Shown: positions 2,500 to 57,646 of the stretch, one piece after another | Position numbering within the stretch: the stretch's first letter is position 1 | How the letters are laid out: the number at the start of each line of letters is the position of its first letter | IMG/VR virus record: IMGVR_UViG_3300045597_000172 | Reading direction: 5' to 3' (one strand) | Source of the DNA: a virus | Lineage: Duplodnaviria > Heunggongvirae > Uroviricota > Caudoviricetes | DNA: 64,000 bases | Notes under the pieces: model-generated | Seen by the model: only the letters and a program-made list of their open reading frames with translations | The model's database searches: none | What the model was told of the DNA's origin: nothing | Position numbers and translations under genes: made by a program

Positions 2500-2572
2500 G
2501 TAAAATGTTGTCATGTCCCGTACAATATCACGCAAACCAAAAAAATTAATAATTAAAAAAAGGAGAATTTTT

Positions 2573-3880: not shown

Positions 3881-3951
3881 AAGCAAAAGCTGGTGCAAAT
3901 AAGGGTTCGATTCCCTTTTTTGCTATTAAATATTGAAAGGAATAATTGTCT

Positions 3952-4461
3952 ATGTTAATCTCAGAAAATTTGCTTATAACTCTTGAAAAAATTGCAAACA
4001 CAAGTTTGAAATACTCACTTGTAGCATCAGAAACAGAATATACTCGTGAAATCGAAAATTTATTACGTGTAAGACCAATTATTTATTATCGAAGAATCGG
4101 ACGAGTTGCTAGTCAATTTGGATGGGAAGAACCAAAAATTTGGAAAACTTTTGCCCAATCCAAAAAACTATCACTCACTAAAATCAAAACTTTTAAATTA
4201 CTATACGGAATTCATAAAAGTAAAAAATACGGAGTTGGATTTATAATTCCGTATGAAGAATCAATTAATTTACAAGAAATAAACGAAGAATTAACAAAAC
4301 TCTTCAAATCACACATAAAAAAACAAGTTAGAGAACAACCATTCAGATTATATGATGATCAAGAATCAAAAGCATTAGTAATAATCGAACCATATCAAAC
4401 TTCAAAAAAGGAGAATACAAATCATGCCAAAAGTAATCATGCAAAACCAAGCACCATTTGA
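3952..4461 (+). CDS. hypothetical protein between the MoxR-like and vWA genes
   Basis: ORF with gaaagga RBS. Track start 3946 is TTG; ATG at 3952 has better spacing. No motif recognised. Confidence 0.4.
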   Translation: MLISENLLITLEKIANTSLKYSLVASETEYTREIENLLRVRPIIYYRRIGRVASQFGWEEPKIWKTFAQSKKLSLTKIKTFKLLYGIHKSKKYGVGFIIPYEESINLQEINEELTKLFKSHIKKQVREQPFRLYDDQESKALVIIEPYQTSKKENTNHAKSNHAKPSTI

Positions 4462-6130: not shown

Positions 6131-6144
6131 AAAGGAGTCAAATT

Positions 6145-8007: not shown

Positions 8008-8039
8008 TATTCGGGCCAATTTAGAAAGGAGCACCACCA

Positions 8040-11000
8040 ATGCCTGTTGACTTAACAAAAATTAACACTACTAAGCAACAAAAACCAAAATTTAACACAT
8101 CGTATTTTCATCATTCCCTTACGGGAATGGGTGGAAAAGTCGGATTGTTCAATAATACCAATACTGTTATTGCAGACAATTTCAAAAAGCATCTATTCCA
8201 ATCCCAACAAGCACTTCCAATTGTTGATCCAAAATTCAACAAATCTGATAAAGCCTTAATGTATGCTAGTGACCTAACTCCGACTGTGCCGGGAGGATAT
8301 CAAGACGATAAGCACCACACTTTTGATTTGTCGCCCCTCTCTATTTTGGCTCAAACTGAACAAAAATGCCGTACCGTTAGATTTACAAAACTGCCAGCAT
8401 TTCTTGCAGAATTGAAAATGCATGAACTTGCAAAAAACAAAGATGATGAAACGCTTAGCGTTGGACTAATCGCAAATCGTGTTGAATATTATCATTACCG
8501 CAACATGAAAGATACTGCCCTAACTGCCGAATCATTTATTTTACATTCAAGTCTTGTATTAAAAGTTACAAAACCAAATGCTAAACGAACAACTGTTCAC
8601 ATGCTCAGAAATGATAATTCTGAGTTAGTAACTTTACAGAAAAGCAGCAAAAGTAATCAAATCATTGTACTAAACGACATTGATCTGTACGTTGGTAAAG
8701 AAAATGGACAAGCATTACATCCAACACTATTCATGGCATTATCGCAAATTAAAAAGAATTACAATTTACAAGATGCTAAAGCAAAAAACACAAGTTATCC
8801 AAATGATCTATACGCTACGGCATCCGCAATCATGGATTATTTAGAGACCATTAACATGGCAGATTCAATCCGTGAGCAAGCACGAATTAATCATGAAAGT
8901 CTTCTTGATGATTTAGCAACATTGGTTAAGTTCATGAACAACACACCAGAACAATTTAACAACCATAGAAAAATCATCATTAACGCATATCATCTAATTA
9001 AACTGGAAGAGTTAAACTATAAGGAAAATGACTATCAAAGATTTTACAATGAAATCAAGTATCAAACGTTAAAGCATCATTGCAAAAATCCACTATATCG
9101 TTACAAACCATATAATTTTAACAAACTGATTTCCGTAAATACTAGACTTTCATTAACCCACCAAATTAGTAACCTGAAAAATAACTCTGCTGTTTATAAA
9201 TTCTCACCATCTGTTACAAAATTACAAACAACCGAGAAATATTCACCTGAACAATCTGCCATAATTCATACCACTGAACCATATAGTGTCGGAATTGCTG
9301 GAGCAGGATCAGGGAAATCACATACGTTACTAGGCCGATTAGAATTTCTACAACAAAACGGAATTGATTTCAAAAAGGTTTTAGTAACATCCTTTACCAA
9401 TACGGCTGCTCAAAATATTATTAACCGATTCAAAAGTGGAATTAACTCGTTAACTAACGCAAATTTGTTTCATAAAATCTATCAAGCAAATTTCCAACAT
9501 GAATTAACAAACGATCTAACCATCGCAAATTTGTTAAAGATGATTTCAGATTCAGCACCAATTATGAAATCAAATAGTACAATTAACGATACTCGTTTAA
9601 AGTTAGCAAAATTAATTGAAAGCAGTGTTTCAACTGGATTCCAGAAAGTTGATCCTCGAAAAATAACTGAATCATTAATTGCCTTAATCAACGAAAACTT
9701 AGATGACGTTATCACTATTTTAGATGCCGTTGGACAAACAAGTTTATTACTAGAACCAATCGTAATTAACGCATTAATGCAAAATCAAGCAACCATTAAA
9801 TATCCTAAAGAATTAAACAATCTTGACTTCATTATTACAGATGAATCACAAGATACATCCGCCTTTGAATATGTATTGTTATTGCAACTTGCACAAATCA
9901 ATGACGCACAGTTGATGATTATCGGTGATGCAAACCAAACATTGTATGAATTTCGTAATGCAAACCCTGATTTCCTGAATGCTCTTGAACGTTCAGATGT
10001 TTTCAAAACGTACACAATGTCAACAAATTATCGTTCAAAACAAAGTGTATTAACATTAGCAAATCAGTTTTTAGATGTTCTAAAAACAAATTCGACTGCA
10101 AAATTACAATTACATGCAAATAAATACAGTAATTTAGATTTAGCACAATTCAAAGACGACATTGAACTGGAAAACTTGATTTTACAACCTGAATCAAAAA
10201 AGGCAGAAGATTTCAAGTCTGAATTAATTAGAACTTTAGTTGATCGTCAAGACTTTCGTGATTGGGTTATTGACCAATACCATAACAAAAATCAAATTGC
10301 TATCATGGCATATCGTAATAATGACACCCAATCTATTGGCGAAGCCGTTCAAAGAGTCATTGAAAACACCCTTGGACAAACTGTAACTGTCGGATATACA
10401 AGACAGCCAACGCCACGTCCAAATACATGGCTTTCTCAAATGTTAAGTGGAACATACGATGCTGATTTCAAAAAGTTTGCAAAGAGTGGACATTTAACAA
10501 CTAAGCATGTAATCAATAGTTTAACTGCTAGACTTCAAGTCATTGCAAATAAACGTCATTACAACGCTGGCGTAATTAACCAATGGGCTTTAGACCAAGT
10601 AAATGAACTAACAAAACGACAAATTTTCAAAATCAACCTTAATGATCTCAACGCCAAACGTATTTCGTTAGGCGCATTTAATGGCTTCATCTCAATGTGG
10701 TTAATTAAAGCTGAAACTAAGAAAAACAACGTAAGTCGACTAATTAACAATCAACAAAACACCGACTGGCAAAATTGTGACATTGTCGTTTCAACAATTC
10801 ATTCAGCAAAAGGACTTGAGTTTGATTCTGTAATTTGTTACTTTGACGAAACCATGCGTTCAGCAACTACCCAAGAAAATCTTCGATTATTCGGCGTTGC
10901 CTTAACACGTGCAAAAAGTAAAGAACTGATTTTAAACCGTCCAAAATTAGAACGAGTAACCAATGCGATCCCTGTTCCAACAAGCTTTGCATATGAAAAA

Positions 11001-27736: not shown

Positions 27737-28012
27737 ATCTCAGTACGAGGCGCAAAGATTGACGCTAAAAACAAAGAAATTTGTTATATCTGATAACCGA
27801 TTGTGAATTGGTTCAACACCAATACAGAAGTTGGAGCTTAGAATCGGTTAACTTATAAAGTTTGAATCCTTATCGTACTATTTCATGCGTGCATTAACTT
27901 GCCAACCATAATTGGTTGCCGTCGCATAGAACTGCACCGACGTCAGTACAGCGTCGTAAAATAAATTAAGCAACACTCCTACAAGGAAATATTGTGCAGG
28001 TATTTCCATAAT

Positions 28013-28084
28013 TGTCCAATAGTTCAGTGGTAGAATATCTGACTGTTAATCAGAGGGTCGTAGGTTCGAATCCTACTTGGACAG
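28013..28084 (+). tRNA. tRNA-Asn (anticodon GTT)
   Basis: Acceptor tgtccaa/ttggaca. D-arm gttc-agtggta-gaat. Anticodon arm tctga-ctGTTaa-tcaga. T-arm gtagg-ttcgaat-cctac. Confidence 0.75.
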
Positions 28085-28303
28085 TAGATGCTACTAAACA
28101 AAGGCATTGCGCTAATTGCGAAAACCAAATAACATTGTTTACTAACGGTGTAACTAAGCTGGGCTAAATGCATCAAAACGATGCATAAATTATGAGATAT
28201 AAATTAAACGCTGGATTGCAACCAGTTGCTCATAATACCAATATTAAAAATGGTACCATTCTTAATATTAGTAGTTAGGTTCGATTCCTAAACGCTGTTA
28301 TTT

Positions 28304-28369
28304 CGTGATTGTAGCTCAAGACAAGAGTCATCGTTGTGACGAGATATTGGTGCAAATCCAATCAATCAC
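28304..28369 (+). ncRNA. degenerate tRNA-like element (66 nt) with T-loop UGCAAAU
   Basis: Acceptor gtgattg/caatcac (7/7). D-arm-like gctc-aagacaa-gagt. T-arm attgg-tgcaaat-ccaat. Anticodon arm truncated. Confidence 0.3.
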
Positions 28370-28405
28370 ATCATAAAATTCAAAATTGGAAAGGAAGATG
28401 TAAAA

Positions 28406-28669
28406 ATGGAATACCGAGTACCCGTTGCATATGGCTCATACGGAATTGTAAAAGTTAATGCTAAAAACAAGCAAGAACTAATCGAAAAATTATCATCTCA
28501 AGAGTTTATTGCTGAAATGCCATTACCTGACAATCCTGAATATCTCGATGACTCATTCGAAATCGATGTAGATGGTTTAGAATTTGAAGAACAACACGAC
28601 AAAAACGGAAACGCTGTCACCCTAGCATTATCTCATAACGAAATTAAAAAAATAAGAAATCCAGAATAA
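28406..28669 (+). CDS. hypothetical protein
   Basis: RBS ggaaaggaagatgtaaaa-ATG. 87 aa. Confidence 0.4.
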   Translation: MEYRVPVAYGSYGIVKVNAKNKQELIEKLSSQEFIAEMPLPDNPEYLDDSFEIDVDGLEFEEQHDKNGNAVTLALSHNEIKKIRNPE

Positions 28670-29138
28670 AACATTGTCCGCAACGACAATCAGCATTCAT
28701 TAAACTACGTGGTGGAGATGGCGTAGAGTAAAACTCACGTCCAAGAAAAAATACAACATGCTTACATAATGTTGTTGTAAAACAGATATTAAACAAAAAA
28801 TAAATTCAAAGGATGTGATGATCGTGCATAGAAGCCGTTTGCTTCACCGTCCGCGCGACGTTATGATTGAAAATATCAATTCATAAAAAAACAATGCTGC
28901 ATATACTATAAAACATAATTGGTGCGTGGGAAGTTGAAATACTTCTATATCGTTAGTTGCTAAAACCGGCTAATGACGAATTAGAATAGGCAAGTTCCGT
29001 TAAATGTACGCCAACCTAGATCTATGTACGTAAAAGCATAATTGATCGCATAGGAAAGACAGCCAATTTAACTTAAAAAGTCAGCACTAGACAAAAAGCC
29101 GTATCGAAGAACGCGTAATGACGTAATCATTACAAAAG

Positions 29139-29166
29139 TTGACAACCAAAGCCAACATGCTAACAT
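29139..29166 (+). promoter_or_regulatory. candidate sigma-A-type promoter upstream of tRNA-Asn (TTGACA-N16-TAACAT)
   Basis: -35 box ttgaca at 29139-29144, 16-nt spacer, -10 box taacat at 29161-29166. tRNA starts at 29184. Confidence 0.3.
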
Positions 29167-29183
29167 AACGTGTGTTAGTTCAT

Positions 29184-29255
29184 TGCTCAGTAGTTCAGTG
29201 GTAGAATAATTGACTGTTAATCAAGAGGTCGTAGGTTCGAATCCTACCTGAGCAG
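29184..29255 (+). tRNA. tRNA-Asn (anticodon GTT), third copy
   Basis: Acceptor tgctcag/ctgagca. D-arm gttc-agtggta-gaat. Anticodon arm attga-ctGTTaa-tcaag (A-G at the stem base). T-arm gtagg-ttcgaat-cctac. Confidence 0.7.
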
Positions 29256-29533
29256 TTTAAAAAACTATGGAAAGCAAACCATTTAAACTCGGTTATTGAT
29301 TACTGTAGGTCAACAATTTTGTACTATATGCATCAAAGACCCACCGTGCAAAATCCAGCACAAACGAGTCTGAGACATCATTTATTCCATTGATATGTTA
29401 GTCCAACTGACAATTCCGGAAACGGACTAAAATCCGTTGTAGATTAGAATCGTTATTGGATGAGATTACGAAACCGGTCCAATGAATAATGTATCAAGAT
29501 GGTAACAAGGAATAAATACATCAAACAGACGGT

Positions 29534-29605
29534 ACATCTGTAAGCTTACTGGTGAACTATTGGTCTCCAAAACCAAAATTGTTGGTTCGAATCCAACCAG
29601 ATGTA
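29534..29605 (+). tRNA. tRNA-Trp (anticodon CCA)
   Basis: Acceptor acatctg/cagatgt. Anticodon arm ttggt-ctCCAaa-accaa. T-arm gttgg-ttcgaat-ccaac. D-arm imperfect but same architecture as the second Trp gene at 44559. Confidence 0.6.
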
Positions 29606-29766
29606 TAAATCAAATGGTTATATCAATCGTTTGATTCTAGTACCAAAGTCAGCAATAGACTATAACAGCCGTAAAAATAGACGCATACTAACGTAATTAC
29701 TGTATAAAAATCAAACGAAGCATAGTAATTTGATGTGTTATTAAGGTGTAGGATAACATTTATTTC

Positions 29767-30092
29767 GGGCTTGTTTTGGATTCGACAGGGCATTAACGCT
29801 TTAATCTCGTCAACCAGTTAAATATAACTGCAAAAGAAAACACTTTAGTTGCTGCCTAGTTTAACCACTAAATAGCAACACCTCAACCCACTGGCAAAGC
29901 CGTGATAACCAGTGGTTTCAAACACGGATAAGTTAATTATGTTCCATTAACATAATTAATCGAAAACTAAAATGGTTAATGAATGTTTGTCATTAGCAAA
30001 ACTCATTATAAAAAAAATAATTAATGACTATGACGTAAGAATGATTACGGTAAGTGATGTCTTGGACGCGGGTTCGATCCCCGCCAAGTCCA
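29767..30092 (+). ncRNA. ssrA: tmRNA (SsrA), about 326 nt, predicted tag (A)AKENTLVAA
   Basis: 5' end GGGCUUGUUUUGGAUUCGACAGGG (tmRNA hallmark GGAUUCGACAGGG). 3' tRNA-like domain gcggg-ttcgatc-cccgc plus acceptor caagtcc pairing with 5' gggcttg, including a G3-U70 wobble (Ala identity element). Conserved UUAAAUAUAACU precedes resume codon GCA at 29830. Frame GCA AAA GAA AAC ACT TTA GTT GCT GCC TAG ends at 29859. Confidence 0.7.
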
Positions 30093-30284
30093 TAAATCAA
30101 AAAAAAATCGTCAAAAATATCTTGACCAAACTTATATGTTAACATATAAGAGTAGTAGGACCGCATACGCGGGATCCTGAGTACAACTTAGTCTAAAGAT
30201 ACCAAGTTGGAATCAAGCAGAGTCAGCTGCTAAGTCAGACAATTTGAACTACTAATTTTACGATATTTATTAATATCGTATTTC

Positions 30285-30363
30285 GGACTCGAAATCAACA
30301 ACCCTAGGAACGTTGATTCCATGAATAGCTGTTAGCCAGATGGTTTGAATCCATCCGAGTCCA
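30285..30363 (+). ncRNA. degenerate tRNA-like element (79 nt)
   Basis: Acceptor ggactcg/cgagtcc (7/7). T-arm gatgg-tttgaat-ccatc. Middle has a tcaac/gttga hairpin with a 12-nt loop but no anticodon arm. Confidence 0.3.
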
Positions 30364-30394
30364 TTGCACCAAATAAAATAAGAAAGCTGGAAAT

Positions 30395-30955
30395 ATGATG
30401 ACCGATAACATTAAAAAGATTCCACAAATTCCATTGTTACACGATATTCCCTTCAATCAAGAAGACAAAGATCTAATCGTTCAACTATCATTACAAGGTG
30501 TAATTGCATCACTCCACAATGACCCAAAATACGGTTTGTTTTTATCAATCAAGAAACCTATTCGCGGCATGTTGTCAGTACAAATTCTCATCGAAAAAGC
30601 AACTCATGGAAATCTCAAAAAAAGTATTCTTGATAGTTGCAAAAATGCACCTGAACAATTATCAAAAATGCGAGATGTGAAATATTTGGATAGTTTAATT
30701 AATAACATCGAAAACTTCCATTTCATTCGCAAATATGACGAACCTTATTTTAAAGAAAACATTCAGCCATTACTAAACAATCACGCTGAGACAGAAAAAA
30801 TAGATAATAAAATTAATCAATACGAATCTGACACTGGCAAAAAAATTGATCTTACCAAACCTGATTTTCAAAAACGTTTAAACGAAATCCGAAAGATACA
30901 ACGACGAAAAATTCATTTTCAATGTAATCTTATTCGCATTGCTAACAGTATCTAA
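30395..30955 (+). CDS. hypothetical protein
   Basis: RBS aagaaagctggaaat-ATG. 186 aa. Confidence 0.45.
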   Translation: MMTDNIKKIPQIPLLHDIPFNQEDKDLIVQLSLQGVIASLHNDPKYGLFLSIKKPIRGMLSVQILIEKATHGNLKKSILDSCKNAPEQLSKMRDVKYLDSLINNIENFHFIRKYDEPYFKENIQPLLNNHAETEKIDNKINQYESDTGKKIDLTKPDFQKRLNEIRKIQRRKIHFQCNLIRIANSI

Positions 30956-30986
30956 AATTAATCACGGTAATCTATTACCGTGTTAC

Positions 30987-31059
30987 GCAGTTTTAGCTCA
31001 GTAGGTAGAGCATCTGTCTTGTAAACAGAAGGTCACAAGTTCGAGCCTTGTAAACTGCA
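30987..31059 (+). tRNA. tRNA-Thr (anticodon TGT)
   Basis: Acceptor gcagttt/aaactgc. D-arm gctc-agtaggta-gagc. Anticodon arm tctgt-ctTGTaa-acaga. T-arm acaag-ttcgagc-cttgt. Confidence 0.75.
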
Positions 31060-31140
31060 TTGCGGTTAATCCGCAATCTAATTGTTTTCTTCAATAGTAA
31101 ATTATTCCTTTTCCGATATGGTAAATCCATATCGTTTTAT

Positions 31141-31227
31141 GGACAGTTGGCCGAGTCTGGTTTATGACGCTGGCTTTGAACACCAGTTGTGAGCAATCAC
31201 ACACAGGTTCGAATCCTGTACTGTCCG
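31141..31227 (+). tRNA. tRNA-Ser (anticodon TGA), class II
   Basis: Acceptor ggacagt/actgtcc. Anticodon arm ctggc-ttTGAac-accag. Long variable arm with tgtga/tcaca stem. T-arm acagg-ttcgaat-cctgt. Confidence 0.6.
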
Positions 31228-31242
31228 TCCAAATATCTTAAA

Positions 31243-33062: not shown

Positions 33063-36000
33063 ATGAATAAAAAAATAATAGCGAAAAAAGTTTCAATTAC
33101 TATTCTAATTACAATCCTTGGATTAACAAACATGTCAGATGTTTTTTTATTAAAAAATAACATTATACACGCAGATCCTACCAATTGGACACAAACTGCA
33201 AACAACGTTAACGCAACAAACAAAAATCTTATAGACAATGCTGTAACAAATTCAAAAAAGACAGAAAATACAAATTTAATTCAGGATCAAACGCAAACAA
33301 TCGATGCAACATCCTCGAATTTAAATGACATTGAAAATCAAGTCAAAAATAGCAACAACAACATGATATCGGAAATAAACAGCGATACCGAAAAACAAAA
33401 AGCTATTAACGAAAAAAATGAACAAATTGAAAAAGACAACAATTCAAAAAAACAATCATATGAAGCAGCATTAACAAATTATAATAACGAATTAGCTGCA
33501 TATAAAAAAAATCTACAAGATCAAGGATTAAATGATGGTATTGATCCTTCCACATTCAATCAACAACTCCAATTTACTCAAGATGACAGAAACAATACAG
33601 AACCAAAAGTGAGTGTTCAATTGTTATCAGGTGCAGTTAATTACAAAAAATTAATAAGTAATGGATACGGAACTAGTAATTTTCCATGGTCAAATTCACA
33701 TGAAGCTGAACAGATATATGCAAAGAATTCAAACGCTAAATCTATTAACGGTGATTTTGCAAAAATCACATGGGATGGTGTATATGGATATTCATATAAT
33801 GGTATACAAATTAAAAAAATTGTAGAAACATTCAGTGACTGGAAATTAGCTGCTACTAAACATGTAAGTGGCCCTCGTGGAATAACCGTGTATCAAAATC
33901 CAAATGAAAATTTTTGGTATTTAAACGGATCCGACACGACAACAAACTATCAATTTTACGATGAAAACGGGAATTTAATAAATTTCGAACCAAATAACGC
34001 ATACGTCGCGGTAGGTAGTTTGGACAGAGCATATTACGCATACGATTTTGGAAGTCACACATACAACACCAATATCGTAGCCAACCAAATCGAAGAAGTT
34101 CAATTATTGTCAGCCGGAACCGGAATACAATTAACAAACAGTACTATTAGCAATCACGATGGCAACAATATGTTTTCTGATAAAGATAATGTACAAATCC
34201 AATATCAAAATGGTGGATTAACAGAATATGGTGCATTTAACGTTACAGGTGGAAATATTAAACTACATTACCACACAAATATGACAAACGAAGCACCAAA
34301 CGCATCAACATTAACTTCATTTGCAACTATATTTCCATTAAGCTCTGCGCCAAAGAAACCAACAAGTCCAACATACACACCAACAGATCCGACAGTGACA
34401 GATATTCATTATCATTACACAAACATAAATTTAAAATTAACAGTCACAACAAATTATCTTCAAAACAATGATTCAAAAAAACAAGAAGATGGCTCAAAAT
34501 TAGCTGACTCTACAACACAATCCGGAGATAGTAACTCAAACTATTCAACTAGTAAAAAAGATTTCACTGGTTGGCATCTAACTTCTACGCCAACAAATGC
34601 ATCCGGAACATTAACAAATTATGACGTGACAGTTAACTATATTTACGACCGTGATCCCGAAACTGTAAAAGTAAAATACGTAGATGAAGAAACCGGAAAT
34701 GATATTAGCAATCCAACAACATTAAATGGATATTACGGATTATCATATACATCATCTCCGAAATCAATTACTGGTTGGACCTTATCTAAAACACCAAATA
34801 ATACATCTGGAACATATTCAAAGAGTAATGCCGATATCATCTATCAATACAAGAGAAATACCGAAACAGTAACCGCAAATTATCTTGCCAATAATGATAT
34901 TAATAAAAATGAATTTGGACAAAAATTAGCGGATTCAGTAACACAAAAAGGTGGTTTCGGAACAAACTACACAACATCTGCAAAAGATATTTTAGGATGG
35001 CATTTACTTGGAATTCCAACCAATCAAAATGGAACCTACCAAGAAAGTAACCCCGACGTCAACTACATTTACGATCGTGATCCTGAAACGGTAACCGTAA
35101 AATATGTAGACACTAAAGGAAACACGTTAGCAAAAAGCAATACCTTAATTGGATACTACGGATTGGATTATCAAACATATCCTGCAAGTATTGATAACTA
35201 CCACCTAACTGCAATTCCTACAAATGCAACCGGTAAATATTCAAATGGTCCAATTACCGTAACTTACATTTATGACGTTGATCCCGACATCAAAGAAGGA
35301 CTTTCTAACGATGCAATAAACAGTAAAAATTACGATACTGCAATTTCTAACACATCACAAAACGTACAATACAATAATGTTTACCACTATGTTGATAAAA
35401 TCACAGTCGGTGGATCCATGAACCTTACCGATCTAAAAATCCAAACAAATCTACCAAGTGATGTTAATCCAATCGTTAACGGTGGCGACATCAATAATCA
35501 AAACATTAAAGTTTATGTTCGTGAAGATGATGGTTCATTAACAAATGTTACAAGTCAAGGAACACTTGCGTATCAAGTAAACAACAAAGATGTAACTAGC
35601 GATAATAACAAAAATGTCGCAATTGATACTGATAAAACAAGAACTCTGACATGGACACCAAAAACACCATCTGCATTCACTGGAAAACAAATCATTACTG
35701 ATATTCCAGTAAATCTTCAACCAGATGCTGCAAAACTAAAAAGTTATAAATCTGACAACGGTATTAATATCAAACACACCACTCAATTAATTGAATCAAA
35801 TGATTTACCAAGTTCTGGTGAAATAAAAACTGATACCACATCACAAAAAACGTATACCAGCAACAATACAACAATTCAATTACCAAACATCTATACGTTA
35901 AAATTTTACAAATCAGAATTTCAAACCAACGATACAATTAATGGAAAAGTTTGGTTGAAACTATATCCAAACCTTGTCGGACAAGAAGATACAGGTAATA

Positions 36001-37334
36001 AAAAACTAGCAACACTAACAGTTAACGGTACAACTCAAGATGTACAAAGCAGTTTATCAACTAGCAACAAAGAAATTTTAACAAACGTAAATAGTTCAAA
36101 AACTGCTAATAATTCAGATCCAACATTTGATATTAACCTAAAAAGTAATCAAACAAACAGCAGTCAAAATCCAGTTGTTTTAACAAAGAGTCTTATTAAA
36201 GATCAAAGTAACAACAACTCCATTTCAAAAACAACTTACGTTTCAAACGATGATCTTTACACTAGCAAAAACACTGCTGCTCAATACAAAAAAGAAAACA
36301 CCTCAAGTACTGTTGGATCCGCACCTGAAGAAGTTGAAACTTATTACGACCAAGATTTAACAAATCCACAAACAGAAACGACTAACGAAACCTCTCCTAC
36401 TTACGTCAAACTCATGGAATACATGAACGCAAACTATAGTAAGACGGTTAGTGCAAAAGCTGGTTATGGTATTAAAAATGATTTGATTTTAAACTACTAT
36501 GGCCGTCATTTAACAAATCAGTCAACTTCTGATACTGATTTTGAAAAAAATAATCTTGCAACGATCTTTAGTACGGATACGGATTTAACCACTGCCAACG
36601 GAAAAACTTCAAGTCAAATTAACGATAATCAACATGAATTACTTGATTATAATGCCGAAGTCAATTCCGTTAACGACTTAATCAACAATGTCAACAATCT
36701 AACTACGAATGCACAAAAGACAAATTATCTTCAATCGAAACTCGGTACAAACGCCGGAAATTCATTTGTCTATAATCTAGCCGGAAAAGAAAACACACTT
36801 GATCAAGCCGTATCAGACATCAACAAGTCAACTGCCTATGTTAACCTTGATGATAAGACAAAATCATTCATCAATACCGTTGACACCGACACAAATTCAA
36901 AACCGATTGCGCCAAAACTATATAGTATGAATTACCGTTTCAACAAACGACTATTATCATACGAAAATAGTAACAGTAACGGTGTTGAATATTATGACCG
37001 AAACAGTTCACATGTAGCTCAAAACGATGACCAACTAATGAATAAAACCGATCCAATCAGTAGCACAACTGATGGCGGATACAAATTTTATACCAACCAA
37101 TGGTTAAAAATTGGAACATATCCGACACACTACACAAGTAACGAATTTGGAACTAACAATTTCAAATTAAAAGCTGATCGCGATCTAAACATTTATGGCC
37201 GACGTTATCTAACACGTTCTGATACTAAAAATGATGGAGATAAATATGATGACCTATCAATTCAACCTGTCATTTCGAAAAATAGTAACGGAACCGGAAC
37301 TACTATGCCTGACGGTGAATGGAGTAATAAATAA
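33063..37334 (+). CDS. large secreted adhesin-like protein with four MucBP-like repeats (1423 aa); possible phage receptor-binding/adhesion protein or host-surface adhesin
   Basis: Signal peptide MNKKIIAKKVSITILITILGLTNMSDVFLL. Four alternating repeats of about 70 aa between roughly nt 34380 and 35290: TV(K/T)VKYVD..GN.L.......GYYGL.Y and ...NY.T......GWHL...PTN..GT......V.YIYDRDPE. Asn/Thr/Ser-rich. No LPXTG at the C-terminus. Confidence 0.65.
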   Translation: MNKKIIAKKVSITILITILGLTNMSDVFLLKNNIIHADPTNWTQTANNVNATNKNLIDNAVTNSKKTENTNLIQDQTQTIDATSSNLNDIENQVKNSNNNMISEINSDTEKQKAINEKNEQIEKDNNSKKQSYEAALTNYNNELAAYKKNLQDQGLNDGIDPSTFNQQLQFTQDDRNNTEPKVSVQLLSGAVNYKKLISNGYGTSNFPWSNSHEAEQIYAKNSNAKSINGDFAKITWDGVYGYSYNGIQIKKIVETFSDWKLAATKHVSGPRGITVYQNPNENFWYLNGSDTTTNYQFYDENGNLINFEPNNAYVAVGSLDRAYYAYDFGSHTYNTNIVANQIEEVQLLSAGTGIQLTNSTISNHDGNNMFSDKDNVQIQYQNGGLTEYGAFNVTGGNIKLHYHTNMTNEAPNASTLTSFATIFPLSSAPKKPTSPTYTPTDPTVTDIHYHYTNINLKLTVTTNYLQNNDSKKQEDGSKLADSTTQSGDSNSNYSTSKKDFTGWHLTSTPTNASGTLTNYDVTVNYIYDRDPETVKVKYVDEETGNDISNPTTLNGYYGLSYTSSPKSITGWTLSKTPNNTSGTYSKSNADIIYQYKRNTETVTANYLANNDINKNEFGQKLADSVTQKGGFGTNYTTSAKDILGWHLLGIPTNQNGTYQESNPDVNYIYDRDPETVTVKYVDTKGNTLAKSNTLIGYYGLDYQTYPASIDNYHLTAIPTNATGKYSNGPITVTYIYDVDPDIKEGLSNDAINSKNYDTAISNTSQNVQYNNVYHYVDKITVGGSMNLTDLKIQTNLPSDVNPIVNGGDINNQNIKVYVREDDGSLTNVTSQGTLAYQVNNKDVTSDNNKNVAIDTDKTRTLTWTPKTPSAFTGKQIITDIPVNLQPDAAKLKSYKSDNGINIKHTTQLIESNDLPSSGEIKTDTTSQKTYTSNNTTIQLPNIYTLKFYKSEFQTNDTINGKVWLKLYPNLVGQEDTGNKKLATLTVNGTTQDVQSSLSTSNKEILTNVNSSKTANNSDPTFDINLKSNQTNSSQNPVVLTKSLIKDQSNNNSISKTTYVSNDDLYTSKNTAAQYKKENTSSTVGSAPEEVETYYDQDLTNPQTETTNETSPTYVKLMEYMNANYSKTVSAKAGYGIKNDLILNYYGRHLTNQSTSDTDFEKNNLATIFSTDTDLTTANGKTSSQINDNQHELLDYNAEVNSVNDLINNVNNLTTNAQKTNYLQSKLGTNAGNSFVYNLAGKENTLDQAVSDINKSTAYVNLDDKTKSFINTVDTDTNSKPIAPKLYSMNYRFNKRLLSYENSNSNGVEYYDRNSSHVAQNDDQLMNKTDPISSTTDGGYKFYTNQWLKIGTYPTHYTSNEFGTNNFKLKADRDLNIYGRRYLTRSDTKNDGDKYDDLSIQPVISKNSNGTGTTMPDGEWSNK

Positions 37335-37340
37335 CACAAA

Positions 37341-37370
37341 AAACCCGCATTTAACGATGCGGGTTTTTTT
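37341..37370 (+). terminator. rho-independent terminator
   Basis: cccgcat-ttaacg-atgcggg followed by ttttttt. Confidence 0.7.
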
Positions 37371-37515
37371 ATAACTATATAAAAAAAATATGCACAATTT
37401 AATCAAATACCATTGCATTTGTGAAATTTATAAGATAAAATAAAGTTCGTAAGTAATGTGTGCACACACCATATCGTTACATACATCATTCCAAAATAAA
37501 GGAAGTGTTTCAAAT

Positions 37516-37698
37516 ATGCCAGAAGCAATGGGTAATATCTCTTGGTCGACATACGCATTAGTAATTGCTGCCGTTATCTTAGGAGTTGTGCTAATTTCGT
37601 TCCCAGAAATTACAAAATCAATCATGTCATTCTTACAGACAATGATCACTACCGCGGGCGGTAAAATTACCGACACGTTAGCAAAATCAGCATCATAA
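37516..37698 (+). CDS. small hydrophobic protein (60 aa); candidate Flp-type major pilin
   Basis: RBS aaaggaagtgtttcaaat-ATG. MPEAMG-NISWSTYALVIAAVILGVVLI resembles the Flp G/xxxxEYxLIAALIAV pattern with TY in place of EY. Has its own downstream hairpin and T-tract. Precedes a Tad-like operon. Confidence 0.4.
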   Translation: MPEAMGNISWSTYALVIAAVILGVVLISFPEITKSIMSFLQTMITTAGGKITDTLAKSAS

Positions 37699-37797
37699 TA
37701 GCAATAATACAAGTCGATAACGCCGGGAAGATTGAAAAATCGACCCGGTTTTCTTTTTAAAATAAGTAGTAACTCTACAATGTAAGGATGTGAATAC

Positions 37798-38244
37798 ATG
37801 CTATCCGGAAAACTTTATACACTAGGTTTAGTTATGTTTTCAGTCTTTTGCAGTCTTCTAATTGCAATCTATTCAATCATGGAATTCACACAACAAAGAC
37901 TCCAAGGTTCACTTCAAACCGTTACCGAAGAAGCTATCTATGACGCACGGTACGATAACGCACGAAGCACTAATAAAGTTTTTGTACTAGATAAAACAGT
38001 CTTTGAACAAGACCTGATCCATAGCAATATCAAAAGTATTTCCAACGATTCAAGTTTAAAATTAGAATACATGCACGATGATAGTACCGCGGCAAAATCA
38101 CTAAACTTAACAGATTCCCGCATCCCTATCAAAGCAGTTAGAGTAACCGTAGTTGATGGAACAAACGATCACTTAAACAAAACAATTACTTACATCATCA
38201 ACTCAAATTCAAAAACTAAAGACGATGACTTATCAAATAACTAA
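37798..38244 (+). CDS. N-terminally membrane-anchored protein (148 aa); candidate TadE/F-like pseudopilin
   Basis: N-terminal TM helix LYTLGLVMFSVFCSLLIAIYSIM followed by a soluble domain. First gene of the operon containing the secretion ATPase. Confidence 0.35.
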   Translation: MLSGKLYTLGLVMFSVFCSLLIAIYSIMEFTQQRLQGSLQTVTEEAIYDARYDNARSTNKVFVLDKTVFEQDLIHSNIKSISNDSSLKLEYMHDDSTAAKSLNLTDSRIPIKAVRVTVVDGTNDHLNKTITYIINSNSKTKDDDLSNN

Positions 38245-38260
38245 TAAAAAAGGTGAACTT

Positions 38261-39691
38261 ATGGAAAATACAGAAAAAACAAACACTCCAATTACCAAAA
38301 CAGAAAATACCGCAACAAAATTTCACCCCTTTCACGACGACGGTGAAACTGATAAAATCTACAAAATCATCAGTGAACTTTTTGCAGACGAACTAACTGA
38401 AGCACTCTTACCAAAAGGCGATACAAAAAAGATTGTTGAAATTCTACAAACTCGAAAAGAATTTGAAGACTGCACAACTCACGACAATCCGCAACGGGCA
38501 CGTGAGATTGCAACTGATATTGCTGGTTTAGGTGTAATTGAAACTATCATTAAAAAATACAATCATGAAAATATCCAAGATATTGGTTACAACAGTAATC
38601 ACATTTTGACCATTGATACAGCCGAACATAAATTCGTATATACCGAAAAAAACTTTGATCCGCATATCAATACGCAATACATGTTAGGTTTGATTAATCG
38701 GTTAGCGCAGCATGAAGCCCCTTCCGGAAAACAATTCGTAGCTGACTCTCCGATTTATAATGGATCTGCTCATATTGGTGACGGTGACGACCGTATTTAT
38801 CTCCGTATTTCAGCAACACATACAAGTCTCGCACCAACTGGACCAACATTAAGTATACGTGTCTCAAAATCGCACCTAGCATTGACTAAAGAGAACTTCA
38901 ATAACATTGCACCCATGATGATCTACAATCTGTTACACGTCTTTATCGCGGCACACACGAGTATTGTGATTTCTGCCGAAACTGGAGCCGGAAAAACAGA
39001 ACTTCAAAAACTGTTACTTGGATTTGTACCATTTGATGAACGAATTGTTTTAATTGAAGATACAAACGAAATGCATTTGACCACCCTTTATCCAAAAAAA
39101 GATATTTTTTCATGGGTAAGTGATCCGTTACTAACTATAAATCATAAACCTGTTAACACCACTACATTAATCGAACAATCACTTCGTACAAACCCAAAAT
39201 GGTTAATCGTTGCAGAATCTCGTGGTGATGAAGCATACGAATTAATCAGTGGTGCTAGATCAGGTCACCCAATCATCACAACGCTACATGCTACATCAAA
39301 CGCAGCAGTACCCGGACGATTAATTGGGATGTCAGCAATGGGCTACAAATTCAACGAAGAAATGTTAGACCGTGATATTTTAAACTATATCAATATCGGA
39401 ATTCATTTAAACTTAAAATCCAATTATCATGGTCGAAAATTACGGTACATTGACCAAATCGTTGAATACGTACCACGCTCCGAAAAATACCCAGATGGAA
39501 TCAATATACTATTTCAACAACACATCGACAAAAATGGTTACCGCACATACTGGATAAACGAAGCCACTGACAAACTAAAAGATCATATTTACCGTGAACT
39601 TGATGAAAAGCTGAAATATCCAACAATTCAAAAAGACTCACCAAAAAAAGAAAAACTCTTTGAATTCAAGTCTGAAACGGGTGAACAATAA
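38261..39691 (+). CDS. VirB11/CpaF/TadA-family secretion (type IV pilus/T4SS-type) ATPase
   Basis: Walker A ISAETGAGKTELQKL. Asp box RIVLIEDTNEMH. Walker B/Glu box WLIVAESRGDEAYEL. His box SGHPIITTLHATS. ATG at 38261 preferred over track start 38225 because of the aaaaaggtgaactt RBS. Confidence 0.7.
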   Translation: MENTEKTNTPITKTENTATKFHPFHDDGETDKIYKIISELFADELTEALLPKGDTKKIVEILQTRKEFEDCTTHDNPQRAREIATDIAGLGVIETIIKKYNHENIQDIGYNSNHILTIDTAEHKFVYTEKNFDPHINTQYMLGLINRLAQHEAPSGKQFVADSPIYNGSAHIGDGDDRIYLRISATHTSLAPTGPTLSIRVSKSHLALTKENFNNIAPMMIYNLLHVFIAAHTSIVISAETGAGKTELQKLLLGFVPFDERIVLIEDTNEMHLTTLYPKKDIFSWVSDPLLTINHKPVNTTTLIEQSLRTNPKWLIVAESRGDEAYELISGARSGHPIITTLHATSNAAVPGRLIGMSAMGYKFNEEMLDRDILNYINIGIHLNLKSNYHGRKLRYIDQIVEYVPRSEKYPDGINILFQQHIDKNGYRTYWINEATDKLKDHIYRELDEKLKYPTIQKDSPKKEKLFEFKSETGEQ

Positions 39692-40532: not shown

Positions 40533-41387
40533 ATGTTTAACAAACAAAAATCAAAAAACACTACTGAAAAAAAGAGAACAACCAACGTTACCGCGGAAGA
40601 CTTTGATGTTCAAACCATGCGATTAAATCTTGTTCGTGAAGAATTAACATTTCCAGCCAGTTTAATTGGTGATGGCGAACTAAGACTCATGCTCAAAATG
40701 GATACTAAAACACGAGTAATCAAAGGTATCATGGGTAACAGATTCCGTGTCGCAATCGCGGCCGTACTATTTGGACTAATTTTTGGAATGATTTCCAAGA
40801 AGTATTTTATTTTAATGTTGTTCCTAGGAATTTTGATAGCTGCCGTTTCGTGGAATGATAGTATTAAAAAAACAAAAAAATACTACCAAATCTATTCGAT
40901 AAATCGTCAAGTTGCATTTACTGAATTTACTAAAATTGCCGGCGCACTTCTTCCTGAATTAGATAACGGAAAAAACCTCCTATCAATCTTTGAAGAAGTC
41001 AGCAAACATATGGACAATGAAAACGATCGTAAAGCATTGAAACAGTTAATGACACACATGCAGAGTAATAACGAAAGCAGTCAGCCATTTCTTGATTTCG
41101 CCCATCAATTTTCCACCAGTGACCGTGCAGAACTAACCATGCTATACATGCACCAAATGTACCTTGGAAACACGGATACAAGCGGAATCCAATCACTGAT
41201 CAACGATTCAAACGAAGATTACCAAGCACAAACTGAAAAAATAATTACGACCAAAATAAAAAGATTTTACAGCACCGCTACAAAGATCGCAATGAGTGTT
41301 TCAATCGTCGTTTTCGGATATTTCGGCATTTACATTGTCAACATGTTCCAGCACATCTTTAAAATCATGTCCAACGTTAAATTCTAA
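40533..41387 (+). CDS. second TadB/TadC-like membrane platform protein
   Basis: 284 aa with the same TM/cytoplasmic/TM architecture (VAIAAVLFGLIFGMI, ILMLFLGILIAAVSW, IAMSVSIVVFGYFGIYIV). RBS gaaaggagcacactta-ATG. Confidence 0.5.
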   Translation: MFNKQKSKNTTEKKRTTNVTAEDFDVQTMRLNLVREELTFPASLIGDGELRLMLKMDTKTRVIKGIMGNRFRVAIAAVLFGLIFGMISKKYFILMLFLGILIAAVSWNDSIKKTKKYYQIYSINRQVAFTEFTKIAGALLPELDNGKNLLSIFEEVSKHMDNENDRKALKQLMTHMQSNNESSQPFLDFAHQFSTSDRAELTMLYMHQMYLGNTDTSGIQSLINDSNEDYQAQTEKIITTKIKRFYSTATKIAMSVSIVVFGYFGIYIVNMFQHIFKIMSNVKF

Positions 41388-41407: not shown

Positions 41408-41776
41408 ATGGACGACGTCAGTATTGGACAACTCATGCATTACCTAACGCTTGGATTATGGATTAGCCTCATTCTATTCATTCTTTGTTATCCAATGTAT
41501 TCAGTTGCACAATTAGTATCATTTCAACAATCATCAGCAACAATTCTATCACGATACGGTGGCGTAACCGCCGATGCCAAAAAAACAGTTAATACCATTG
41601 GGGAAACATATTACAGTAATAAATTCAGTATCGTAGATACCCCAAGCGACAAAACAAGCAATTACGGAGGAAACATTCCATACACAATTCATGTAAGAAT
41701 CCCCGTAATCAGTAACTTAGTCGAAACAAATATCCAAGCCAACACTGAATCAGACGTACGTAACGAAAACAATTAA
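41408..41776 (+). CDS. N-terminally anchored small protein (122 aa); pseudopilin-like, paralog of 41962..42336
   Basis: N-terminal TM helix LTLGLWISLILFILCYPMY. Shares a C-terminal motif Y-[TI]-I-x-V-[RH]-IP-[VL]-I with the 41962 product. Confidence 0.4.
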   Translation: MDDVSIGQLMHYLTLGLWISLILFILCYPMYSVAQLVSFQQSSATILSRYGGVTADAKKTVNTIGETYYSNKFSIVDTPSDKTSNYGGNIPYTIHVRIPVISNLVETNIQANTESDVRNENN

Positions 41777-41796
41777 AAAAAGAAAGATGTGATCAT

Positions 41797-41946
41797 ATGA
41801 AACGCGGTTTTTCAGAATTAGTATTCACAGTTCCCGGAGCGGCATTTATCGCAATGATAATCATTATAATCGCGGCATTTATTTCTCCCAATATGCTTCA
41901 AACAATGTGGTTACTTCTCGTGAATAACAATGGAATCACATTCTAA
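41797..41946 (+). CDS. 49-aa prepilin-like mini-protein (class III signal-like KRGF/SE motif)
   Basis: Not in the ORF track. MKRGFSELVFTVPGAAFIAMIIIIIAAFISPNML. The K-R-G-F-S-E pattern resembles the (K/R)G-F-T-L-[IV]-E prepilin peptidase site, followed by a hydrophobic helix. Confidence 0.4.
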   Translation: MKRGFSELVFTVPGAAFIAMIIIIIAAFISPNMLQTMWLLLVNNNGITF

Positions 41947-41961
41947 GGCGGTGATTAAATA

Positions 41962-42336
41962 ATGGCCCATTTTCCATTTGAAGAACTAATTCGTTGGTTA
42001 TTCATGAGTCTATGTATTGCGTTTTTTATAAATATTTGTGCAATCAGTTTTAACGTAATGCAAATCAATAACTACGAAAAAAATATCGACAATTACATTG
42101 AGAACAACGGAAAACTAGACAGTGCATATATTAACAACAATATTTCACCCAAATTCAACAATTATTTTACCGTAAAGCCCAAATCTACAAACGATGAACA
42201 ACCTCACGACTTTGGTAAAAGTGTTGATTACATCATAACTGTTCATATCCCGCTCATTGCATTTGCAAGCAAAAATGAATCACTTGGAATCAACACCACA
42301 TATTCTGGTTTCAGTACTTCAAAAATTTCAAACTAA
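41962..42336 (+). CDS. N-terminally anchored small protein (124 aa); pseudopilin-like paralog
   Basis: N-terminal TM helix LIRWLFMSLCIAFFINICAISF. C-terminal YIITVHIPLIAF motif shared with 41408. Confidence 0.4.
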   Translation: MAHFPFEELIRWLFMSLCIAFFINICAISFNVMQINNYEKNIDNYIENNGKLDSAYINNNISPKFNNYFTVKPKSTNDEQPHDFGKSVDYIITVHIPLIAFASKNESLGINTTYSGFSTSKISN

Positions 42337-44321: not shown

Positions 44322-44385
44322 TAAAATCAGAAATTGATACTTGCAACATTTACCTCAATCTGATATTATATAACCAAGCAGTTTT

Positions 44386-44459
44386 CAGGATATAGCTAAG
44401 TTTGGTACAGCGCCGCATTTGGGATGCGGAGGTCACAGGTTCAAATCCTGTTATCCTGA
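44386..44459 (+). tRNA. tRNA-Pro (anticodon TGG)
   Basis: Acceptor caggata/tatcctg. Anticodon arm ccgca-ttTGGga-tgcgg. T-arm acagg-ttcaaat-cctgt. Confidence 0.7.
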
Positions 44460-44465
44460 TTTTCT

Positions 44466-44538
44466 GGGACATTAGCGCAATTGGGAGAGCATCTGCTTTG
44501 CAAGCAGAAGGTTGACGGTTCAAATCCATCATGTTCCA
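44466..44538 (+). tRNA. tRNA-Ala (anticodon TGC) with G3-U70
   Basis: Acceptor gggacat/atgttcc with the G3-U70 wobble. D-arm gcgc-aattggga-gagc. Anticodon arm tctgc-ttTGCaa-gcaga. T-arm gacgg-ttcaaat-ccatc. Confidence 0.75.
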
Positions 44539-44558
44539 TAGTTACAAATTTTTAAAAT

Positions 44559-44630
44559 GTGCTGTTACGCTCAATGGTAAACTACCGGTCTCCAAAACCG
44601 GTCATCTTGGTTCGAATCCAAGACAGCATG
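44559..44630 (+). tRNA. tRNA-Trp (anticodon CCA), second copy
   Basis: Acceptor gtgctgt/acagcat. Anticodon arm ccggt-ctCCAaa-accgg. T-arm cttgg-ttcgaat-ccaag. Same architecture as 29534..29605. Confidence 0.6.
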
Positions 44631-44682
44631 TCAAAAAACCACAAATAGAAACCAAGGTGGTATACACGTCAATCAATTTTTC

Positions 44683-56428: not shown

Positions 56429-57646
56429 ATGAATATTGTGTATACAGTAGAAGGACGATACGCCACTGCAAAAGTTTTCAATAACTTAACCGATGCAAAT
56501 GCCATCGGACAACTAATTGGTATTTGTAATGAATTAATTACACAAAACACAAAAGTCGCACTAATGCCAGATGGACACTTCGGCGCAGGTGTTCCAATCG
56601 GAACTACTATCAAATTGCCAAAAGAAAAATCTAAATGGCGCATCTCACCTACGATTATTTCCGGTGATATCGGATGTGGTATGCTCGCCATTAAAATTAA
56701 GCAACACGATCTTGATTTCAAGAAATTAGACGACTTTATAACAAAAAACATTCCAAACGGTGCCGAAAAGAATACAAAAAAGCAAAATGTTAAATTTTCA
56801 ATTGAGACCATTGCAAAAATGACATTCAATTCATCTAAATTTGACAAAGAAGATGTCCTTTACAGTTTAGGCAGTCTTGGCGGTGGAAACCACTTCATTG
56901 AAATCGACAAAGACAAGAAAAATAACTTTTGGCTCGTTATTCATTGCGGATCAAGACATGTTGGTATTGCAGTCTTAAAAGCACACATGGCAATTGCTAA
57001 ACAACACTATTCAGATCAATATTTAGAAACTCTAAGTGAATTTTATCGTGCTGCTGGCCGTGAGAAAGAATTAGAAAAAACACTAAAGGCATTTAAACAA
57101 ACTGACATTTTAACCAATATTGACTATGCATTTTTACAAGGAACATATTTAGAAGATTATTTACATGATGTCAAAATTGCACAAGCCTTTGCTTCAAAAA
57201 ACCGTGAGATTATTGCTAATCAAATCTTAAAAGCCATGAACTGGACAATCGACGAAAAAGTTGAAACGATTCATAACTATTTTGACTACAATGATAATAC
57301 ACTTCGCAAAGGTGCAACTTCTGCACATCACGGACAAAAATTAATCATCCCATTAAATATGCGAGATGGTGCACTAATCTGTTATGGTCGCGGTAACGAA
57401 GATTGGAATTATTCCGCACCACATGGCGCGGGACGTAAATTAACAAGATCAGAAGCCAAAGAAAAAATAAACTTAGCCAATTTCAAAGATGAAATGTCTG
57501 GAATCTATACGACATCCGTTGAAACATCAACTATTGATGAAGCTCCCGAAGCTTATAAACCTACGGAACAAATTACCGAAACCGTTGGTGATACCGTACG
57601 TATACTTGACCGAGTAAAGCCTGTTTATAACTTCAAAGCTCATTAG
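56429..57646 (+). CDS. rtcB: RtcB-family RNA 3'-phosphate/2',3'-cyclic phosphate ligase
   Basis: MPDGHFGAGVPIGTT, GSLGGGNHFIEID, IHNYFDY...LRKGATSA, NYSAPHGAGRKL. All are canonical RtcB metal/GTP-binding motifs. Confidence 0.8.
   Translation: MNIVYTVEGRYATAKVFNNLTDANAIGQLIGICNELITQNTKVALMPDGHFGAGVPIGTTIKLPKEKSKWRISPTIISGDIGCGMLAIKIKQHDLDFKKLDDFITKNIPNGAEKNTKKQNVKFSIETIAKMTFNSSKFDKEDVLYSLGSLGGGNHFIEIDKDKKNNFWLVIHCGSRHVGIAVLKAHMAIAKQHYSDQYLETLSEFYRAAGREKELEKTLKAFKQTDILTNIDYAFLQGTYLEDYLHDVKIAQAFASKNREIIANQILKAMNWTIDEKVETIHNYFDYNDNTLRKGATSAHHGQKLIIPLNMRDGALICYGRGNEDWNYSAPHGAGRKLTRSEAKEKINLANFKDEMSGIYTTSVETSTIDEAPEAYKPTEQITETVGDTVRILDRVKPVYNFKAH

Follow-up and report, generated by a model that had tools for sequence, protein, structure and literature searches.

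A 49-codon membrane-protein gene within a Tad-like ATPase module shared with Gram-positive plasmids

The stretch analysed here (64,000 nucleotides of the virus record IMGVR_UViG_3300045597_000172; hereafter the window) carries a series of genes arranged around a secretion ATPase, and within that series lies an open reading frame (ORF) of only 49 codons. An earlier note on this DNA had read its product as an unannotated prepilin with a class III-like signal, encoded between two pseudopilin-like paralogues. The locus thus raises the question of whether so short a frame is a gene at all and, if it is, to which system it belongs and what its product might do. We found that the ORF is a genuine gene and a highly diverged form of a small gene that is already catalogued, although uncharacterised, in a known plasmid module; a part in a Tad-like filament machine is the role towards which we lean, and the claim of a class III signal is weak.

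The 49-codon ORF is a gene and a member of an operon

The ORF, which the earlier note had placed and measured correctly, initiates with ATG and specifies the product MKRGFSELVFTVPGAAFIAMIIIIIAAFISPNMLQTMWLLLVNNNGITF. The basic start MKRG, the Gly4-Phe5 pair, the Glu at residue 7 (position +3 relative to the Gly) and a hydrophobic stretch at residues 8-30, all of which that note had described, are indeed present in the sequence. The protein is predicted to be bitopic, with its short basic N-terminus in the cytoplasm, one helix and the tail outside.

41797..41946, + strand: 49-aa ORF; MKRG, a hydrophobic helix of ~23 residues and a 19-residue tail; predicted single-pass membrane protein with the N-terminus inside.
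41780..41794, + strand: Shine-Dalgarno-like site AAGAAAGATGTGATC, ahead of the ATG of the 49-aa ORF.

Orthologous versions of the ORF are three in number, namely that of the window and those of L001 and L099-L101 (numbers of this type denote related loci fetched for comparison), and every one is exactly 49 codons long. Identity to the window protein is 45/49 residues (92 %) for L001 and 38/49 (78 %) for L099-L101. Between the window and L099 we counted 17.5 synonymous and 15.5 non-synonymous differences (pS 0.54, pN 0.14, pN/pS 0.25, within a range of 0.25-0.30 for the orthologues), a deficit of non-synonymous change with a binomial P of ~2e-4, and both frame and length have been kept despite 22 % divergence at the DNA level. 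The 14 positions that vary among the three proteins (2, 9, 11, 12, 19, 21-23, 26, 29, 34, 39, 42 and 47) all fall outside the blocks R-G-F-S-E-L, P-G-A-A-F-I, S-P-N-M, Q-T-M-W and N-N-N-G, which are therefore invariant; the last of these belongs to a conserved C-terminal tail, NNNG[IL]TF.

The ribosome-binding site of the ORF is among the strongest in the window, as its duplex with the 3' tail of the 16S rRNA reaches -13.4 kcal/mol, compared with a median of -9.6 for window genes, and an equally strong duplex occurs at just 0.05 % of random positions. The L099 orthologue is preceded by a Shine-Dalgarno sequence of its own, AAAGGACGTGA. The codon log-likelihood score (LLR) of the ORF is 4.2, which is low for a gene but exceeds that of 98 % of spurious ORFs. 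On the + strand the operon begins after a hairpin at 37338..37369 and runs in the order 60-aa gene, 148-aa gene, ATPase, 274-aa gene, 284-aa gene, 122-aa gene, 49-aa ORF and 124-aa gene, the ORF being separated by 20 nt from the stop of the 122-aa gene and by 15 nt from the start of the 124-aa gene. Our scan for promoters and terminators revealed no terminator-like site between the ORF and its neighbours; across the region such sites were no more frequent than chance, except for the hairpin that follows the adhesin gene upstream.

Selection on the orthologues, the ribosome-binding site, codon usage and the operon context together establish that the gene is real. A chance open frame in an intergenic spacer might have been suspected from the shortness of the ORF, the lack of any database family and a codon-usage score at the low end for genes; set against purifying selection and a strong ribosome-binding site, a 49-codon frame maintained over 22 % DNA divergence and the recurrence of a comparable ORF in this place in dozens of modules, this reading is effectively refuted already. 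The gene is also called, with no function assigned, in the JGI record of the contig (3300044212, Ga0455833_0234) and in the Logan and ENA assemblies of relatives, so the earlier description of it as unannotated and missed by standard annotation does not hold.

A diverged counterpart of a small gene in a known plasmid module

Relatives of the ATPase, embedded in the same gene order, were found in conjugation operons of Bacillus, Enterococcus and Listeria. They include a Bacillus element that also bears genes for TcpC, TcpE, a VirB4-like protein and a thioester adhesin, an E. faecium contig with TrbC and VirD4, a pLS20-family plasmid and Listeria pLM5578; in total, > 60 metagenomic and genomic loci carry the module. 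The ATPase is 40-60 % identical to its metagenomic relatives, the closest of which (59-60 %) lie on contigs that end before the position of the small ORF. Among named relatives, plasmid pBin4p1 of Bombilactobacillus mellifer (L104) comes closest, with an ATPase that is 41 % identical.

In the published table of pLS20 genes the corresponding series comprises gene 34 (adhesin), gene 36 (126 aa, N-anchored), gene 37 ('putative VirB11'), genes 38 (268 aa) and 39 (243 aa), gene 40 (120 aa, N-anchored) and gene 41, a protein of 47 aa (range 45-54) with one helix and the function 'Unknown' (PMC8557374); CDS 19-23 of pAW63 correspond to the same series (PMC1196294). The order common to the window and to the 'VirB11' regions of pLS20, pAW63, pXO2 and pBT9727, to Listeria pLM5578 and to the Enterococcus plasmids is thus adhesin, ~125-aa protein, ATPase, two membrane proteins of ~250-280 aa, ~120-aa protein and ~47-aa single-helix protein. 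All of the larger module proteins are detectably homologous between the window and this group, with the window ATPase being 35-41 % identical. The window differs from this group in having two gene-40 paralogues that flank the small ORF, and in that the 49-aa sequence is not detectably related either to pLS20 gene 41 or to the family described next.

In ~40 modules an ORF of 45-54 aa with a single helix starts 5-20 nt after the gene-40 homologue. The members of this positional family mostly begin with M-x-E-N-N-x-x-R, followed by a helix and a ~20-residue amphipathic tail with an aromatic residue or Met at its end; in 22 of 23, Gly is missing from the four residues ahead of the helix. The order gene 40, small ORF, gene 40 recurs in L104, L005/6, L020/22 and L023/24. 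The small ORF of L104 (54 aa), flanked on both sides by gene-40 paralogues, matches the positional family significantly (E 3.9e-5), whilst sister clades with the same order carry idiosyncratic small ORFs (L020, MKETIVKIIIVL...; L005/6, MDKPIVQILTIL...).

The 49-aa ORF has the place and the form of this family: it directly follows a gene-40-family gene, lies within 45-54 aa and has one helix. Searches with its sequence found few relatives. Against the positional-family profile the protein scored 2.8 bits (E 2.7 among 494 ORFs), with the N-terminal motif unmatched, nor did jackhmmer, run over 7,757 small ORFs, connect it significantly to any family. A word-indexed homologue search retrieved one homologue, at 92 %, and an exhaustive phmmer search of 1.84 billion protein representatives returned the 92 % orthologue and one spurious helix match; Pfam, PHROGs and NCBIfam gave no match. 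The gene evidently evolves fast, judging from these comparisons. Because the L104 member has the identical gene-40-flanked arrangement, synteny, size and topology identify the 49-aa gene as the lineage-specific counterpart of the 45-54 aa gene that follows gene 40.

The public records of two module-bearing plasmids deserve comment with regard to these small genes. In Listeria pLM5578 (L013, NZ_CP019166.1) a 47-aa ORF at 7995..8138, directly after gene 40, is unannotated. In B. subtilis pJNFE0126A (L012, NZ_CP071277.1) an unannotated ORF at 8093..8266, after gene 40, is a third copy of gene 41.

The surrounding module resembles a Tad system

The remaining features of the module and its surroundings in the window are as follows.

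33063..37334, + strand: surface adhesin of 1423 aa with MucBP repeats (Pfam MucBP x4); directly upstream of the operon, at the position of pLS20 gene 34.
37338..37369, strand not assigned: GC-rich hairpin with a 13-bp stem and flanking A/T runs; likely terminator, at the boundary between the adhesin gene and the operon.
37516..37698, + strand: Flp-like mini-protein of 60 aa; matches the hidden Markov model (HMM) of the pLS20 gene-41 family (E 3.9e-11).
37798..38244, + strand: N-anchored protein of 148 aa; aligns with the pLS20 gene-36 / pXO2_26 family.
38225..39691, + strand: secretion ATPase of 488 aa, CpaF/TadA-like (Pfam T2SSE); 'VirB11' in the plasmid literature.
39691..40515, + strand: membrane protein of 274 aa; pLS20 gene-38 family, TadB/TadC-like platform protein.
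40533..41387, + strand: membrane protein of 284 aa; pLS20 gene-39 family, TadB/TadC-like platform protein.
41408..41776, + strand: N-anchored protein of 122 aa (paralogue 1); pLS20 gene-40 family by alignment and HMM match.
41962..42336, + strand: N-anchored protein of 124 aa (paralogue 2); pLS20 gene-40 family by alignment and HMM match.

The module contains a CpaF/TadA-type ATPase and two paralogous platform proteins of TadB/TadC (T2SSF) type, and is syntenic with the pLS20/pXO2 module. For the ATPase, the best NCBIfam match was the TadA-family model TIGR03819, with VirB11 close behind, and its best matches in the PDB were CpaF at 110.9 bits versus VirB11 at 87 bits. When compared by hhalign with a small TadB/TadC alignment, the 274-aa family gave a probability of 83 % (E 9e-6) and the 284-aa family one of 73 % (E 3e-5); the two families are paralogous to each other (77 %, E 2e-5), and one member of the gene-39 (284-aa) family has a sub-threshold Pfam T2SSF match. 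In the pLS20-family plasmid L012 of B. subtilis (NZ_CP071277.1) the ATPase coding sequence at 4944..6956 is annotated as 670 aa long and equals pLS20 genes 37 plus 38 (402 + 268 aa), which is either a fusion or an annotation read-through.

The homologues that align with the 148-aa protein carry a precomputed Pfam match, PF27053. In the gene-40 alignment with the Bacillus, Enterococcus and Listeria plasmid homologues an ER-GG-T motif is conserved. The AlphaFold 2 model of the 122-aa protein shows a long N-terminal helix and three strands, with a pLDDT of 60 on a shallow alignment; Foldseek of this model against the PDB gave nothing below E 0.5, and PDB profile searches with the 274-, 284-, 122- and 148-aa families gave no significant matches. 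The two proteins that flank the 49-aa ORF are therefore paralogues, as had been proposed, and the term pseudopilin-like fits their topology of a helix followed by strands, but the model is of low confidence and no fold match backs it.

An adhesin gene also lies upstream of the module in the Bacillus, Enterococcus and Listeria plasmids. The adhesin orthologue of L099 (1..1471) has GbpC and antigen-I/II N-terminal domains together with PF27438 (PXO2_28_C), a C-terminal domain also present in thioester adhesins from the Bacillus and Enterococcus modules, which suggests that it is through PXO2_28_C that varied adhesins are coupled to the ATPase machine.

A second small protein, at the start of the operon

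The 60-aa protein at 37516..37698, MPEAMGNISWSTYALVIAAVILGVVLISFPEITKSIMSFLQTMITTAGGKITDTLAKSAS, is the window match of a gene-41-like profile built from the related loci, and its gene is preceded by the Shine-Dalgarno sequence AAAGGAAGTG. JGI calls in its place an overlapping 123-aa ORF on the minus strand (37428..37799), whereas the ENA gene calls list the 60-aa gene in the orthologous loci L099/L100. The codon LLR is 0.25 per codon for the 60-aa gene versus 0.02 for the minus-strand ORF, and the latter is probably spurious. Members of the gene-41 family often occur in tandem; the pLS20-like plasmid has three, one of which lacks annotation, and L050 has five. Gene-41-type proteins consist of a helix, a Pro and an amphipathic tail, and are similar in this to mature Firmicute Flp pilins.

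The 49-aa protein scored 2.5 bits against the pLS20 gene-41 / Flp-like profile (helix, F-P, amphipathic tail) and is not a member of it; some members of the positional family do score with the gene-41 (Flp-like) HMM. Judged by these features, the 60-aa, gene-41-type protein is the better candidate for a major subunit. Certain distant branches of the mini-proteins (L056, L057, L111, L113, L053 and L086-L096) start with M-G-E-K-[ST]-G-G-L-T-N-M or M-S-E-[IL]-K-G-[QS]-L-L-G, and so have Lys-x-Gly(-Gly) right before the helix, which looks more class III-like than the main family.

Does the 49-aa protein carry a prepilin signal?

A class III prepilin would be cut after Gly4 by a host ComC, PilD or TadV peptidase, and its 45-residue product, FSELVF..., would be polymerised as a pilin. 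A number of features fit this. M-[K/N]-R-G is found in all three orthologues, so that a basic leader ends in Gly at -1, followed by Phe at +1, Ser at +2, a Glu nearby and a hydrophobic helix of ~20 residues right after the predicted cleavage site. R-G-F-S-E-L is invariant in orthologues that differ at 14 other positions, the context is Tad-like, the N-in topology is that of pilins, and K-x-G-G or K-G precedes the helix in a few distant members of the mini-protein family. The combination is also rare: ORFs that have [KR]G among residues 1-12, a hydrophobic run of 24 residues and a Glu anywhere from +1 to +6 numbered 1 among the 485 six-frame ORFs of the window and 4 among the 7,757 small ORFs of all fetched loci, three of those four being orthologues of the 49-aa ORF.

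Against such processing, the Glu is at +3 and not at +5, where the orthologues have Val, Ala or Ser, and the Flp motif G/XXXXEY is absent. The sequence after the Gly is FSELVF, compared with ATAIEY in a bona fide Flp; the Sinorhizobium reference sequences read G/ATAIEY for Flp and G/ATAVEF for TadE. There was no Pfam match at E<=10 to the Flp/Fap pilin family PF04964 and none to TadE-like PF07811 or N_methyl; the protein has no C-terminal domain as in TadE, and the likeness to that family is a loose E...P resemblance in which the Pro stands at E+6 rather than at E+7 as in the reference. The leader, at four residues, is unusually short, and we know of no characterised bacterial prepilin leader as short as this; those of the Firmicute Tad pilins (...ENG/MLIALAV and ...EDG/MELLQM) have 21 and ~39 residues. 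As noted above, Gly is lacking ahead of the helix in 22 of the 23 positional counterparts. Nor did we detect an A24 prepilin peptidase, either in six frames of the window (G-x-G-D-x-K motif) or in ~100 related loci (two Firmicute A24 proteins as phmmer queries, together with the motif), in a search that recovered both Firmicute Tad loci used as positive controls.

Com pseudopilus prepilins offer an analogy. Firmicute Com pilins have G/FT... at the cleavage site, with a ComGC-type signal of K-G/F-T-L-x-E, and the 49-aa protein may be likened to them in its Gly at -1, Phe at +1, Ser/Thr at +2 and hydrophobic helix; by this comparison host ComC would be the sole plausible peptidase. Unlike the Com prepilins, the protein has its Glu two residues closer (+3), a four-residue leader and no globular domain, and its gene is unlinked to comG genes. 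The R-G-F-S-E-L N-terminus is, as far as the aligned orthologues tell, constrained and confined to a narrow lineage. What survives of the prepilin reading in the earlier note is therefore a real gene for an N-in single-helix membrane protein, in a Tad/type IV-filament-like operon and with an invariant motif around the Gly; the claim of a class III signal is weak. Processing by a host ComC or PilD is possible, the motif being its one indication, and we consider it unlikely that the protein is a cleaved and polymerised prepilin of this class.

Possible roles of the product

The reading that we favour, with modest confidence, assigns the 49-aa protein to a peptidase-less, Tad-like filament machine, as a small subunit that is either pilin-like or concerned with initiation or assembly. 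The module would build a short Tad-like type IV filament or pseudopilus, made of the gene-41-type mini-protein; the N-anchored gene-36 and gene-40 proteins would prime its assembly, and the filament would present the adjacent surface adhesin. The 49-aa protein would then act as a pilin-like or initiation/assembly subunit that docks with both flanking gene-40 paralogues. Both filament formation and this role are what we infer from the context, and a pilin-like role is reasonable because the product is a small N-in membrane protein inside a Tad/type IV-filament-like operon. The likeness to Tad/Flp pili lies in CpaF as the nearest solved ATPase, the two paralogous TadB/C-related platform proteins, the small proteins of Flp size and the larger N-anchored proteins at the places of minor pilins. 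Unlike Tad/Flp systems, the module has no detected TadV/A24, TadZ or CpaB and no G/XXXXEY motif, and its small proteins begin with leaders of 4-9 residues, most of which lack Gly. Under its literature label 'VirB11', the module appears to have gone unrecognised as a variant of the Tad system that lacks the peptidase.

Several observations weigh against a filament subunit. Variation among the orthologues is concentrated in the helix whilst both ends are conserved, the reverse of what pilins usually show; the TadB/C comparisons by hhalign reached moderate probabilities (73-83 %); and TadZ, CpaB/RcpC and a TadV/A24 peptidase were not found in the window module or its relatives, whereas the Firmicute Tad loci used as controls, L014 and L015, do have TadZ, CpaB and the A24 peptidase. 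No sequence method ties the 49-aa protein to the positional family or to gene 41, the tie being synteny. No filament has been reported for the module-bearing plasmids, and none of the papers in the library searched describes the module as a pilus or says more of gene 41 than 'Unknown'; moreover, Gram-positive type IV secretion systems seem not to develop pili, according to the pLS20 literature (PMC8092201).

Conservation of the ends over the helix suits a docking subunit no less than it does a polymerising pilin, and we therefore keep as a substantial, albeit less probable, alternative that the protein is an accessory outside any filament, one that remains membrane-bound and serves to stabilise or regulate either the TadB/TadC-like platform or the gene-40 proteins. 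Conserved termini are what docking contacts would lead one to expect, the conserved cytoplasmic x-E-N-N-x-x-R of the positional family could bind the ATPase or platform, and the separate, often tandem gene-41 family is better suited to the role of major subunit. Conversely, we know of no accessory subunit this small in characterised Tad, Com or type IV pilus systems, and those positional-family members that score with the gene-41 HMM suggest common ancestry with the putative pilins. It is very improbable that the protein is instead the precursor of a secreted hydrophobic signalling peptide, similar to the enterococcal pheromone inhibitors, or a membrane peptide of the type I toxin kind. Plasmid-encoded peptide signals do exist in Gram-positive conjugation systems, and the protein is small and signal-peptide-like with a conserved tail; its gene, however, sits in a structural operon, 15-20 nt away from either neighbour, and lacks its own promoter and terminator, the hydrophobic core of ~23 residues exceeds that of a typical Sec signal peptide and no A-x-A site is present, and the tails of the positional counterparts are quite different.

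Returning to the Tad-like filament, a bolder form of it can be imagined, although we think it quite improbable: Gram-positive plasmids, those of the supposedly 'pilus-less' pLS20/pXO2 family among them, would encode a pared-down, peptidase-independent Tad filament of mini-pilins of 45-60 residues, tipped by a large adhesin. In the Lactobacillaceae megaplasmid lineage of the window, one such mini-pilin, the 49-aa protein, would have regained a Com-like R-G/F-S-E signal that is processed by host ComC.

An element that looks like a plasmid

The earlier note had implied a phage setting by speaking of infected cells and virions, and this was not borne out. Nothing phage-like appeared among the 30 window proteins scanned; ten further ORFs compared with PHROGs yielded no structural proteins, the region had no match to phages by megablast, and IMG/VR scans with the ATPase and with its alignment found no relatives. 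A phage origin accordingly has no support, as these searches gave no phage hallmark or structural proteins and the only close 'phage' matches were two Listeria records. These two records (OR848116.1 and OR846771.1, 'Listeria phage LM 4-14-1 / 4-11-1', 21 kb) show the same ATPase-query coverage, identity and bit score as pLM5578, and could both be pieces of plasmid that were deposited under a phage name.

The element is at least 237 kb in size and looks like a megaplasmid. VirB4, VirD4 and TcpC/E were not seen in the 64-kb window and therefore the module may be uncoupled from conjugation here. The window also contains 19 tRNA genes and a tmRNA (tag AKENTLVAA), at 22540..31231 and 44385..44632, in an element that is otherwise plasmid-like with its genes all on one strand; for the tRNA at 22540..22611 the anticodon was called as two bases and is unassignable. 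An actin-like protein (MreB-like_C), a MoxR-type AAA and VWA pair, a ClpB-like double AAA protein and an RtcB RNA ligase are encoded at 824..2038, 2513..8007 and 56429..57646.

Meaning for Gram-positive conjugative plasmids

Reviews describe the conjugation systems of Gram-positive bacteria as having neither VirB11 nor pili (PMC12857230, PMC8092201), yet the ATPase module is common to pLS20, pAW63/pXO2 and plasmids of Listeria, Enterococcus and Lactobacillaceae. With its CpaF-like motor, TadB/C-like pair, Flp-sized proteins (that of the 49-aa ORF included) and adjacent adhesin, it resembles a minimal Tad system. In terms of annotation, the conserved genes of the module that fall below 60 aa are called inconsistently, and some are displaced by spurious antisense ORFs. 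The module is a candidate pilus machine in plasmids held to be 'pilus-less', and offers a testable hypothesis for how such plasmids or their hosts might make cell contact, for which its small genes are now pinpointed as those that are relevant.

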